Positions 1 to 1,703 are shown, counted from the stretch's first letter. The stretch is DNA of 1,703 nucleotides from Escherichia coli (GCF_003334255.1 NZ_QOWU01000152.1), one strand, 5' to 3'. Numbers and translations are program-made. Notes: generated by a model from the letters alone, not told the origin.

Positions 1-157
1 GGAAACCGTCTGGGGAGAACCCCAGACCCCCATCGCTGTAACACCGACGGTCTACGACCACCAACCAGCCGAATAGCTGCCTGTACCGTGCAAATAGGCT
101 TTGCAGGGAGCTGACGCGGTTCCTAGCGACCTGAAAGCCCCTGGTTAGGGGTATCGG
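1..157. repeat. Left copy of terminal direct repeat (window begins inside it; true extent unknown)
   Basis: Positions 1-157 align without gaps to 1547-1703 (offset 1546), 151/157 identical. Mismatches at 78, 82, 100, 112, 142 and 145 are all T here versus A in the right copy. Confidence 0.95.
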
Positions 158-170
158 CGCGCCTGACCTC

Positions 171-263
171 CTGAGAGCCTCTGTAAGCGTTTTTCGCGCC
201 TTCCATGCCCTGGCGGGCATTTAAACCCGTTTCGTGCGTCTGAGAGCTTCTGAGCGTGTTTGA
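171..263. repeat. Imperfect direct repeat pair flanking a short hairpin
   Basis: CTGAGAGCCTCTG (171-183) and CTGAGAGCTTCTG (240-252) match 12/13, each followed by AGCGT and a T-run. Between them ATGCCC-TGGC-GGGCAT (205-220) forms a 6-bp stem with a 4-nt loop. Confidence 0.5.
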
Positions 264-300
264 AGGGCTATCTGACGACTCATCCCCGAAAGAACAACAA

Positions 301-334
301 CGGGATCACCGACAACATGCGAGAGGTGATCCCG
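301..334 (-). terminator. Candidate intrinsic terminator on the minus strand (10-bp GC-rich stem)
   Basis: CGGGATCACC (301-310) and GGTGATCCCG (325-334) are perfect reverse complements with a 14-nt loop. On the minus strand the stem is followed by TTGTTGTTCTTTC (complement of 288-300). The loop is longer than in a classic terminator, so confidence is low. Confidence 0.3.
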
Positions 335-456
335 CTCGCCGCAAGTCGATGACCGAGCGTAGCGAGCGAATCGACGAGGAAGCGGAAGAGAACCGGAAGT
401 TACATTGAGCACTTACGCACGGATGCAGGGTGTCGGGGTGAAGCCCTGACCAGGTG

Positions 457-503
457 GGGAATGTCTGAGTGCGCGTGCGCGGTCCGACATTCCCACATCC
501 TGT
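457..503 (+). other. Stem-loop followed by ATCCTG (candidate oriT-like nick region, MOBP-style)
   Basis: GGGAATGTC (457-465) pairs with GACATTCCC (486-494), a 9-bp stem with a 20-nt loop. It is followed after 2 nt by ATCCTG|T (497-503), resembling the YATCCTG|Y nick core that sits 3' of an inverted repeat in RP4-type oriT. A 6-mer match alone is weak; the arrangement is the evidence. Confidence 0.25.
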
Positions 504-690
504 CCCGATTTCTGAGGCGTTTTAACGGTGAACGGACGGCAAAAACATGATCGAGCTGTTGAACGTGGAGAGCGCGAAATCGGGCAAAATCATGGCTGAC
601 GAGGCTTGCAGAGGAGTAAGCCAGTATACACTCCGCTATCGCTACGTGACTGGGTCAGGGCTTCGCCCCGACACCCCAAAAGGGCGTTGC

Positions 691-702
691 GTTGCGCGCA
701 AC
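691..702. repeat. Perfect 12-bp palindrome GTTGCGCGCAAC
   Basis: Self-complementary sequence at 691-702, preceded by the tandem GCGTTGC GTTGCGC. Lies about 20 bp upstream of the T-rich tract. Confidence 0.7.
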
Positions 703-720
703 ACCCTTGCCTAGAATAGA

Positions 721-770
721 TCTTTTACGCCGATTTGTAAGTTGTTGTTTTTTTAGTGTGTTTTTTGTTT
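721..770. other. T-rich, AT-rich tract (candidate DNA-unwinding element of a replication origin)
   Basis: About 70% A+T by eye with runs of 6-7 T on the + strand (for example GTTGTTGTTTTTTTAGTGTGTTTTTTGTTT), lying directly 5' of the dyad cluster and the rep gene. An origin role is inferred from position and composition only. Confidence 0.4.
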
Positions 771-773
771 ACC

Positions 774-838
774 TGTCGCATCCAGGGTGACACAACGTTG
801 TCGCATCCTGGATGCGACAACACGCAACAAGGTGTTGC
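774..838. promoter_or_regulatory. Dyad-symmetry / short-repeat cluster upstream of rep (candidate operator or origin binding sites)
   Basis: GTCGCATCC occurs at 775-783 and 800-808, and its reverse complement GGATGCGAC at 810-818, so 800-818 is a 9+1+9 palindrome. ACAACGTTGT at 792-801 is a perfect 10-bp palindrome. GCAACA (824-829) and TGTTGC (833-838) form an inverted repeat with a 3-nt spacer. Confidence 0.6.
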
Positions 839-864
839 ACAGATGTGTCATGATGGCTTAGATT
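835..864 (+). promoter_or_regulatory. Candidate sigma70 promoter for the rep-like gene
   Basis: TTGCAC (835-840) as -35, an 18-bp spacer, and TAGATT (859-864) as -10. Both are imperfect matches to TTGACA and TATAAT. The -35 overlaps the dyad-symmetry cluster, which would fit autoregulation. Sequence-only prediction. Confidence 0.35.
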
Positions 865-892
865 TGAACCAACGTTAGTGCATGGGATTTTC

Positions 893-899
893 AGAGGGA
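893..899 (+). promoter_or_regulatory. Ribosome-binding site for the rep-like CDS
   Basis: AGAGGGA, purine-rich Shine-Dalgarno-like motif 8 nt upstream of the ATG at 907. Confidence 0.6.
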
Positions 900-906
900 A
901 AAAATC

Positions 907-1383
907 ATGTTTATTGATTCAGAAAAACGACTGAAACAACTTTCAGATGAGGCAAAGAAAAACACCGAGGATCTCGAAGAAGCAAAGAAGAATTCAAGGT
1001 TTACACAGGTATCCCCAAAAGGTTGGGAACGCGTTCGAGAGCTGCTGAAGGATAGCCAAGGCATATCAGCACTGAAGCTGTACTCATTTTTAGCGGAGCA
1101 TATCGATCCTACGTGTGGCGCTGTCGTTGCGGATCAGCAATTCCTAGCTGAAAAACTTGGAGTTAGCAGAAGCACAATTATTCGGTGGCTCAATTACTTA
1201 GAATCAAAAAATGCATTAGTTAGAATCCCCGTTGCTGGTAAGGTTTGTGCGTATGCCCTCGATCCACATGAAGTCTGGAAGGGATACAACACTACGAAAA
1301 ACCATGCAGCGTTTGTCACTAAAACACTGGTCAACAAAGACGGTGATATTCAGCGCCGAATCATGGCCATGTTTTCAAATTGA
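907..1383 (+). CDS. Putative plasmid replication initiator, winged helix-turn-helix (RepL-like), 158 aa
   Basis: Only long ORF with a sensible context: ATG at 907 sits 8 nt after the Shine-Dalgarno AGAGGG (893-898), stop TGA at 1381-1383. The protein has a charged N-terminus and a central segment QQFLAEKLGVSRSTIIRWLNYLESKNALVRI, typical of an HTH recognition helix plus wing, followed by a YALDPHEVWKG-type motif. This layout matches small plasmid Rep/RepL-family proteins as I recall them. The family call is from memory of motif patterns, not from a search. Confidence 0.75.
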   Translation: MFIDSEKRLKQLSDEAKKNTEDLEEAKKNSRFTQVSPKGWERVRELLKDSQGISALKLYSFLAEHIDPTCGAVVADQQFLAEKLGVSRSTIIRWLNYLESKNALVRIPVAGKVCAYALDPHEVWKGYNTTKNHAAFVTKTLVNKDGDIQRRIMAMFSN

Positions 1384-1546
1384 GCCAGCGGCAGGCGGAC
1401 AATCAGGGGCTACGTGTTAACGTTTTGACCATGATTGTCTATCCTGCATTGCTCTTTTGCCGCCTCAAAATCCCTTGCGTGTTTTTGCTCCCCGATCCCA
1501 AGAACGACCGCGTCGCCACGGTTCCGGCAGCGCCTTGAGCGCAACC

Positions 1547-1703
1547 GGAAACCGTCTGGGGAGAACCCCAGACCCCCATCGCTGTAACACCGACGGTCTA
1601 CGACCACCAACCAGCCGAATAGCAGCCAGTACCGTGCAAATAGGCATTGCAGGGAGCAGACGCGGTTCCTAGCGACCTGAAAGCCCCAGGATAGGGGTAT
1701 CGG
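1547..1703. repeat. Right copy of terminal direct repeat (runs to the window end; true extent unknown)
   Basis: Same alignment as the left copy. Carries A at 1624, 1628, 1646, 1658, 1688 and 1691 where the left copy has T. Consistent with wrap-around or a tandem copy of a 1546-bp unit. Confidence 0.95.

Follow-up and report, generated by a model that had tools for sequence, protein, structure and literature searches.

Genetic organization of the element

The DNA analysed here (hereafter the window, the whole stretch of 1,703 nt, given as one strand 5′ to 3′) is Escherichia coli contig NZ_QOWU01000152.1 of assembly GCF_003334255.1, and it contains one complete unit of a tiny cryptic plasmid followed by a second, partial copy of the beginning of that unit. 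The plasmid has a single conserved gene, repA, and is very probably a circular 1,546-bp member of the pKL1 family that is composed of an AT-rich replication module and a GC-rich, non-coding backbone suited to hitchhiking on other plasmids. The features referred to below are as follows; comparison loci are designated by L numbers.

1-1546, plus strand: complete plasmid unit, read as a circular monomer; 100% full-length identity to circular 1,546-bp records, PLSDB type Col(MG828), mobilizable
907-1383, plus strand: repA, encoding a predicted 158-aa winged-helix replication initiator (WP_000469298.1); from homologue annotation, Pfam relatives, and an AlphaFold2 (AF2) model
735-865, plus strand: putative origin of vegetative replication (oriV) and repA operator/promoter; repeat architecture common to relatives, and the description of the pKL1 oriV in PMC3832669
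428-518, plus strand: predicted origin of transfer (oriT) of the I-complex (R64 family, MOBP/NikAB); 96-98% identity to nikA-adjacent sequence in p866 and pBEC1
617-676, minus strand: predicted ColE1-type oriT/bom (nic region); 100% identity over about 65 nt to a rop-mobC intergenic region
318-426, plus strand: putative ColE1-like primosome-assembly (pas, or single-strand initiation) block; homology to a block beyond a ColE1-like origin
1384-1546 and on into 1-317, no strand assigned: remaining GC-rich backbone; 92-96% conserved across three rep modules
1547-1703, plus strand: wrap-around copy of 1-157 with six private T-to-A differences; A absent from nine relatives

An initial annotation, made from the sequence alone, had described a minimal, Rep-only replicon with one rep-like gene. 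With regard to genes this holds, as the 158-aa open reading frame (ORF) at 907-1383 is present, is the sole conserved gene, and has homologues annotated RepA or RepL. With regard to the DNA it does not, since two oriTs and a primosome-like site occupy the non-coding half. The main correction to that earlier description is that a mobilisable hitchhiker, and not a bare replicon, is predicted.

Plasmid identity and circularity

The initial annotation could not tie the unit to a named replicon, and plasmid databases supply the name. Positions 1-1546 are matched at 100% identity, end to end, by several complete circular records of 1,546 bp, among them E. coli pYLMB98b (NZ_CP073928), CP048862, NZ_CP107133, and NZ_CP050363 from Klebsiella pneumoniae; pJD8 (NC_019059) shows 99.6% identity across its entire length. 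The PLSDB records that contain at least 80% of the unit number 332; of 5,426 complete E. coli genomes, 291 contain as much, and about 2,400 plasmids match no more than short parts of it by megablast. The matching records are typed in PLSDB as replicon Col(MG828) and are predicted by MOB-suite to be mobilizable. The plasmid is therefore already known, being a long-known and common cryptic plasmid of Enterobacteriaceae of the pKL1, or Col(MG828), type.

The closest described system is pKL1 (1,549 bp, E. coli KL4; Burian et al. 1997/1999/2003), which is like the window in size class, sole gene, and order of elements. Its siblings pO26-S1, pVR50I, and pJD8 have backbones 92-100% identical to that of the window, and the 1,549- to 1,553-bp plasmids examined encode a 158-aa Rep identical to the one studied here. 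Two characters of pKL1-type 1.5-kb plasmids are found: the circular records and the terminal overlap give a circle of about 1.5 kb, and the single 158-aa RepA gene is accompanied by no further conserved ORF. Compared with siblings of 1,549, 1,551, and 1,552 bp, the 1,546-bp variant differs mainly by a replaced allele of the I-type oriT inverted repeat (457-503), in addition to scattered single-nucleotide polymorphisms and indels. From the 1997-era UniRef representative O07102, the 1,549-bp size, and the literature, we infer that the window Rep is pKL1 RepA. The description of this family dates back to 1997, and its type is routinely given as Col(MG828). In PMC3832669 the region upstream of rep in pKL1 is reported as the oriV, in agreement with the tiny cryptic plasmid layout that had been proposed.

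The window begins and ends with a direct repeat (1-157 and 1547-1703) whose copies start 1546 nt apart and agree at 151 of 157 positions; a match of this length within 1.7 kb is not explicable by chance. The repeat and its spacing had been noted initially, and both stand; the repeat is imperfect, with six differences that appear to be artefacts. In each of these the left copy has T and the right copy A (left positions 78, 82, 100, 112, 142, and 145, corresponding to window positions 1624, 1628, 1646, 1658, 1688, and 1691), and all six sites lie within the final 80 nt of the window. The left copy is exactly equal to database plasmids. For the right copy, the best full-coverage match among the 72,556 plasmids of PLSDB is 96.2%, which equals its identity to the left copy, and A was not found at any of the six sites in the nine relatives examined.

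Because unit 1-1546 is identical to complete circular records of the same length, the window is, on these comparisons, a circular monomer plus a 157-bp wrap-around, linearised by the assembler with a terminal overlap; the circular element of about 1546 bp considered in the initial annotation is thereby borne out. The six T-to-A differences are read as assembly or contig-end errors rather than as a diverged second unit, because the six A residues are private, clustered in the last 80 nt, and absent from relatives. Natural polymorphism was rejected as their source, given that they are private to this sequence and that the best full-coverage match is 96.2%, and a heterodimer was likewise rejected from the nine relatives and the PLSDB match search. 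Four of the six sites have a CTG-to-CAG context. Contigs of this kind should be trimmed to 1,546 bp, and the six T-to-A positions should not be counted as variation. In this respect the finding is mostly a clean negative, namely a common known plasmid whose terminal repeat is a circularisation artefact.

The replication protein

The repA gene (907-1383) is preceded by a Shine-Dalgarno sequence, GAGGGA, at 893-898, and its product, WP_000469298.1, is annotated merely as "helix-turn-helix domain-containing protein". Identical proteins are encoded by plasmids of 1,538 to 1,553 bp in Escherichia, Shigella, Klebsiella, Serratia, and Enterobacter. The 90% cluster of this Rep comprises 1,164 members on at least 1,000 contigs, with O07102_ECOLX as the UniRef representative, and one source or member name in it is "RepA plasmid replication protein". 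Homologues annotated RepA are 57-66% identical to the window Rep, such as that of pKPHS6 (1,308 bp), and homologues annotated RepL are 42-45% identical; for one protein, WP_045145680, the pairwise comparison gives 42% identity and an E-value of 3e-41. Among the 120 closest relatives listed, nearly all are on contigs of 0.5-4 kb.

In Pfam, the protein matches HTH_36 (3.5e-8) and RepL (PF05732; E=0.0043, score 17.0), and a 42%-identical homologue matches the RepL profile at 2.1e-4. A search of 1.84 billion representatives yielded 581 relatives at 50% clustering, and 64 diverse full-length relatives were drawn from it, of which 31 match RepL at 1e-3 or better (best 4.5e-10) and 51 at 0.1 or better. 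Because 31 of these 64 reach that level, Rep appears, by profile comparison, to represent a divergent enterobacterial branch of the RepL family. A Rep-family match of the kind that the initial annotation had in mind was obtained narrowly for the protein itself, and family-level evidence from its relatives was needed.

The AF2 model built from the 64-sequence alignment (pLDDT 86.5, pTM 0.72) predicts a long N-terminal helix, a winged helix at approximately residues 37-118, and a C-terminal helix. It replaced a first model from 27 close sequences that was rejected as poor (pLDDT 64.7). Fold searches with the Rep model returned winged-helix matches alone, with no nuclease or specific initiator relative. 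With regard to the established initiator classes, the protein lacks a Pfam match, an HxH motif, and a nuclease fold that would place it among the HUH initiators (Rep_1, Rep_2, Rep_trans). It has neither a Rep_3 match nor more than a single winged-helix domain, which separates it from the iteron-type theta initiators (Rep_3, or RepA/pi with WH1-WH2), and the repeats upstream of its gene consist of two tandem palindromic units and a half-site, with no iteron array of three or more. The pSN2-group RepL plasmids of Firmicutes are likewise small and single-gene, with winged-helix Reps of 150-180 aa; they are linked to the window Rep through family-level Pfam matches and differ in host phylum. It was also reported that pKL1 RepA hexamerises (Burian et al. 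2003, as cited in PMC3832669).

Some records that encode the same or a related Rep are smaller than the window plasmid, such as pKPHS6, L015, and CP058111 (1,306-1,316 bp). The smallest noted is NZ_CP104674, a 1,123-bp E. coli record whose Rep is 100% identical to that of the window and which, if complete, would delimit a minimal replicon without much of the backbone.

Putative origin of replication and repA operator

The T-rich tract and dyad cluster that the initial annotation placed upstream of rep are present. The tract spans 738-770, and it is followed by two tandem imperfect palindromes of about 23 bp (774-796 and 799-821), as well as by a perfect 12-nt palindrome in the dyad cluster (797-808/810-821). 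Exact TGTCGCATCC half-sites start at 774, 799, and, on the minus strand, 819. A further half-site, GTGTCA, is located at 845-850, within the spacer of a weak promoter recognized by eye (−35 TTGCAC at 835-840, 17-nt spacer, −10 TTAGAT at 858-863). A search of the window for an exact integration host factor (IHF) site or a DnaA box found nothing convincing.

The 240 nt upstream of rep were aligned among plasmids whose Reps are 55-81% identical. In L013, L014, L015, L016, and L017 the upstream architecture is like that of the window, and the half-site words change with Rep:

window and pKPHS6: TGTCGCA
L013: TGTTGCA
L014 and L015: TAGCTCA
L017: CCGGAAA

The segments common to the window, pKPHS6, and L013 are the upstream repeats and rep, and nothing else. 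Because the half-sites co-vary with Rep, and because the repeats and rep alone are shared with pKPHS6 and L013, these comparisons support the palindromes as putative Rep-binding sites that would mark both the oriV and the operator. Autorepression of repA through Rep binding within the promoter is also suggested, because one half-site sits in the promoter spacer. For pKL1 itself, the account in PMC3832669 places the oriV upstream of rep and describes in it an IHF box, a perfect inverted repeat, and several sites for Rep binding.

Two predicted transfer origins

The segment 428-518 is 96-98% identical to sequence located 17 nt upstream of nikA (annotated mobA) and a relaxase gene in two conjugative MOBP/MPF_I plasmids, p866 (IncI-gamma/K1) and pBEC1-S17-ESBL-07_1 (IncK2/Z). 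Within it, a conserved box (428-451) is followed by an inverted repeat of 18 nt (457-474/477-494) and then by the nick-region motif ACATCCTGTCCCG at 495-507. In view of the homology to nikA-upstream sequence and of the inverted repeat followed by ACATCCTGTCCCG, this segment is, by homology, an I-complex (R64-family) oriT, at which nicking and transfer by NikB/NikA are predicted; by analogy with R64, the nick would presumably fall after G502.

A second predicted oriT, of the ColE1 type (bom), lies on the minus strand at 617-676. About 65 nt here are 100% identical to sequence between rop and mobC, next to the mob genes, in NZ_CP046543, a ColE1-like MOBP plasmid with RNAI, and matches to 614-681 occur in hundreds of small mobilizable plasmids. 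The two oriTs converge, and the 24-nt box that both contain forms an inverted repeat (I1: 428-451/653-676). It was further observed that the 24-nt box, GGGTGTCGGGGYGAAGCCCTGACC, starts both the I-complex and the ColE1 oriTs, here as well as in the native plasmids L003 and L004, which suggests that the two oriT families may share either common ancestry or an accessory-protein or hairpin element.

With two oriTs and rep as its sole gene, the plasmid has the characters of the pOriT class, i.e., relaxase-less mobilisable plasmids. Because two oriTs and a primosome-assembly-like site are located in its non-coding half, it is predicted to be mobilisable in trans.

Primosome-assembly-like block

The third element of the backbone, at about 318-426, has 75-88% matches in thousands of plasmids. 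Its pas-like core, CGCTCGCCGCA..GACCGAGCGTAGCGAG..CGAGGAAGCGGAA, occupies 333-385 and is preceded by a hairpin with a 10-bp stem (301-310/325-334). The motif AAGCGG occurs once in the plasmid, at 380-385 on the plus strand, and single-stranded DNA folds of the block give z-scores of −2.1 and −2.4. In the ColE1-like plasmid L019, a pas-like block is situated approximately 50-135 bp past the RNAI-inferred origin, directly before rop. The ColE1 block homologous to 318-426 is one that we take to be an n′/PriA primosome-assembly site. Both the sequence and the position in L019 fit the designation of 318-426 as a putative ColE1-like primosome-assembly site.

The pas-like core is also common to an IncX4 conjugative plasmid, NZ_CP047058 (L020), in which positions 3001-3205, which precede the replication initiator gene by about 650 bp, are 79% identical to window positions 173-387.

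Modularity and the Col(MG828) label

The backbone, taken as 1379-1546 together with 1-682, is 93-97% identical in plasmids that have different rep modules. The same backbone accompanies RepL-annotated proteins in pMG828-1 and p204A1-1K (about 44% identical to the window Rep) and in L007 and L018 (42-43%), and a RepA in L017 (55-57%); conversely, L013, L015, and pKPHS6 encode a close Rep without the backbone of the window. The two parts also differ in composition, with a GC content of 55-62% in the backbone versus 39-48% in the rep module.

A comparison of replicon labels across L001, L002, L005-L007, and L009-L018 showed that plasmids with any of three different rep modules receive the type Col(MG828) from PlasmidFinder/MOB-suite. 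On the other hand, L013 and L015, whose Reps are 70-80% identical to that of the window and which have another backbone, are untyped, and pKPHS6 is typed Col(KPHS6). Judged by these loci, the Col(MG828) label follows the non-coding backbone and not the rep gene, and for this reason appears unsuited to infer replication or incompatibility relationships. The PlasmidFinder reference for this label, pMG828-1 (NC_008486, 1,902 bp), has the whole backbone at about 93%, both oriTs and the pas block included. Its rep module differs; in p204A1-1K, which is nearly identical to it, this module encodes a RepL-annotated protein of 182 aa and a small extra ORF. The oriT inverted-repeat allele of pMG828-1, GGCATTTG...CAAATGC, also differs from that of the window.

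Allele replacement in the I-type oriT

The plasmids pO26-S1 (1,549 bp) and pVR50I (1,552 bp), and a 1,551-bp plasmid, encode the same Rep as the window and are 92-100% identical to it outside 457-503, and within this interval, the I-type oriT inverted repeat, identity to these siblings falls to about 60%. At least six alleles of the inverted repeat occur among tiny plasmids, with the flanking box and the nick motif invariant, and this diversity was recorded in L007, L008, L009, L010, L011, L012, and L015.

Covariation was assessed over 11 distinct alleles of a 16-pair inverted repeat, with shuffled and slid controls. The arms are paired in 89% of cells and 9 of the 16 pairs are altered on both sides; for the outer pairs, the change on both sides affects five of seven, with 97% pairing. 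The covariation score is 0.481, as compared with 0.198 for shuffles (0/500), and slid controls did not exceed 0.116; ACATCCTGTCCCG is invariant across the 11 alleles. Conjugative plasmids (IncK/Z type) that encode the NikA-like protein WP_001291058.1 have the same allele as the window, and other alleles are closest to I-complex plasmid subgroups with other NikA variants.

One genome, E. coli O111:H- 110512, contains a 1,546-bp plasmid (99.6% identical to the window) together with a 119-kb plasmid that has the matching nikA-oriT allele (99.8%), and NZ_AP019768 and NZ_AP019762 form a candidate natural helper/hitchhiker pair. In another direction, L008 (NZ_CP055222, 2,275 bp, Shigella flexneri) has another I-type oriT allele in two copies of inverse orientation, at 1464-1550 on the plus strand and 1906-1822 on the minus strand, an arrangement like that reported for pBuzz; a linear ORF listing of L008 recognised neither a rep-like ORF of at least 80 aa nor an ORF homologous to the window Rep.

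Proposed mechanism

The features above would be compatible with the following scheme. In the AT-rich replication module (about 683-1383), RepA would bind the palindromic repeats that precede repA, open the T-rich tract next to them so that replication starts, and at the same time repress repA transcription. Because RepA has no nuclease motif or fold, it would probably initiate replication by binding and melting the origin, with the helicase and primase of the host, and not by HUH-type nicking. In the GC-rich, non-coding hitchhiking backbone (1384-1546 and 1-682), the ColE1-like primosome-assembly site would prime the complementary strand. As no relaxase gene is present on the plasmid, mobilisation would have to occur in trans, either by NikA/NikB of a co-resident I-complex conjugative plasmid of the IncK/Z type or, alternatively, by the Mob proteins of a ColE1-like plasmid together with a conjugative helper.

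Rep-only tiny plasmids of this kind would accordingly not be inert, and probable mobilisation by IncK/Z-type and ColE1-type systems among Enterobacteriaceae would account for the identical Rep in Escherichia, Klebsiella, Shigella, Serratia, and Enterobacter. A broader proposal, which we put forward tentatively and consider possible rather than probable, is that the whole family is a plug-and-play hitchhiker, with convergent oriTs of two families, swapping of I-type alleles to match NikA, and a backbone exchanged among rep modules. If so, each of two unrelated relaxase systems could export either strand, the inverted-repeat cassette would be swapped to fit the NikA of whichever I-complex plasmid circulates, and the Col(MG828) type would track a transfer and priming backbone instead of a replication system.

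Alternative explanations

Several observations weigh against the two-module plasmid described here. The six mismatches between the repeat copies are uniform in type, every one being T to A. The window Rep alone is below significance for the RepL profile, and searches of NCBIfam and of Protein Data Bank (PDB) sequences, whether by the single protein or by a profile, gave generic helix-turn-helix matches under the cut-offs and nothing specific. Gram-positive RepL plasmids (the pSN2 group) are classically listed among rolling-circle plasmids. At the putative oriV, the IHF-like site within the T-rich tract (minus strand, 750-738) has one mismatch, and a promoter/terminator consensus scan called no promoter and found terminators at chance level. 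The backbone segment of about 480 bp formed by 1384-1546 and 1-317 has no Rfam family, Xer core site, or conserved ORF. Finally, helper co-residence was found in one genome among the rows listed, which is no more than chance.

Three other explanations were considered. The window could be a piece of a true head-to-tail multimer or tandem array (a dimer or an integrated concatemer) whose copies have really diverged: six differences in 157 are not expected from a simple short-read k-mer overlap, multimers do arise among small high-copy plasmids, and a search for an Xer (cer-like) resolution site yielded none. Monomers from one molecule ought to be identical, however, and the differences are confined to the final 80 nt and present in none of the relatives examined, with the left copy an exact database match; moreover, hundreds of independent records close as circles of 1,538 to 1,553 bp. 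Such a multimer is thus highly improbable. Not much more credible is the view that recombination with ColE1-like and IncI-like plasmids left the oriT- and pas-like sequences behind as inert relics, and that the plasmid is a vertically inherited, non-mobilisable, Rep-only element. Some close relatives are indeed typed non-mobilizable by MOB-suite, and a backbone that is 92-96% alike among relatives does not by itself prove constraint. Against this, the I-type oriT allele has been replaced in a near-identical backbone with the arms kept complementary and the nick motif invariant, and this arm-compensated replacement indicates selection for function with different NikA partners. In addition, the allele of the window is essentially identical to that of conjugative plasmids with one NikA variant, the ColE1 oriT core is 100% conserved, identical Rep across five genera implies horizontal spread, and pBuzz, a plasmid of the same design, is reported in secondary accounts to have been mobilised experimentally. 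We regard inert relics as improbable.

Replication by a rolling circle deserves more attention, although it too seems unlikely. Here, Rep, alone or with a host nuclease, would nick near the palindromes, the plus strand would be displaced, and the pas block would act as its single-strand origin. The Rep family is linked to RepL, and RepL (pSN2) is grouped with rolling-circle plasmids; the sole AAGCGG lies on the plus strand, in the sense of rep, where a displaced plus strand needs a single-strand origin; and the hairpin-rich backbone is kept across different rep modules, as single-strand origins are. The similarly organised pBuzz is called a rolling-circle plasmid in the title of Moran & Hall. 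On the other side, the Rep model predicts a plain winged helix with additional helices and no HUH or catalytic-Tyr nuclease fold. The pKL1 oriV, with an IHF box, multiple Rep sites, and a hexameric RepA in the account given in PMC3832669, resembles those of origin-melting initiators. In the ORF listing of the pBuzz-like L008, no ORF homologous to the window Rep was recognised. Origin melting by RepA, combined with predicted mobilisation in trans, is the preferred explanation.

Comparison with known hitchhiker systems

Mobilisation of pBuzz (1,982 bp), which has two inverse oriTs, by a B/O plasmid was previously reported (Moran & Hall 2019, as related in PMC9282650 and PMC11389934), as were oriTs of other Inc types in relatives of pBuzz (as related in PMC9282650, PMC11389934, and PMC7448864). 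To judge from these accounts, pBuzz (Plasmid 2019;101:10-19) resembles the window plasmid: it is tiny and cryptic, comes from E. coli, has a single rep gene and two inverse oriTs, and lacks a relaxase. Both of its oriTs are described there as related to the helper oriT, whereas the two oriTs of the window belong to different families (I-complex and ColE1); pBuzz differs further in size and probably in Rep.

The pOriT class comprises relaxase-less plasmids with R64-like and ColE1-like oriTs (Ares-Arroyo, Coluzzi & Rocha, NAR 2023), and the window plasmid shares with it these oriT families, the lack of a relaxase, the small size, and a presumed helper-dependent transfer. About 88% of E. coli oriT plasmids have one oriT, in contrast to the two of different families found here, and at 1.5 kb the plasmid is near the lower size limit for natural plasmids. 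The oriT diversity of pBuzz-like plasmids and the pOriT concept are already published; an explicit description of the pKL1/Col(MG828) family as hitchhikers, and the mis-targeted replicon label, may be unpublished.

Remaining backbone and rejected candidates

An Rfam scan of the window at E≤1 gave one chance microRNA (miRNA) match and no RNAI or other RNA family, and a ColE1-type RNA-primed origin was rejected, with no RNAI in that scan. A search of the window for a Xer/cer-like core site found nothing convincing, and a conservation profile of the backbone did not separate functional blocks, since the relatives are too alike.

Two ORFs were rejected as genes. The 55-aa ORF at 547-714 is broken by 1-nt indels in sibling plasmids. 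The minus-strand backbone ORF of 194-273 aa is frameshifted or interrupted in relatives: the NCBI Prokaryotic Genome Annotation Pipeline (PGAP) annotates it in one relative, and it is interrupted in the window and six other relatives. The remnant in the window, which runs across the junction, is frameshifted or stopped, with a longest stretch of 118 aa. This arginine-rich ORF (L014, 981-1565, minus strand; L010; L006) appears as a hypothetical protein in some records and is intact in 3 of 11 relatives.

Two small structures complete the backbone. A hairpin with an 8-bp stem, GTCTGGGG-AGAA-CCCCAGAC, is located at 8-27, inside a block (1515-60, across the junction) that is invariant across relatives, and a loose direct repeat, CTGAGAGCYTCTG.AGCGT, is present at 170-194 and 239-262.

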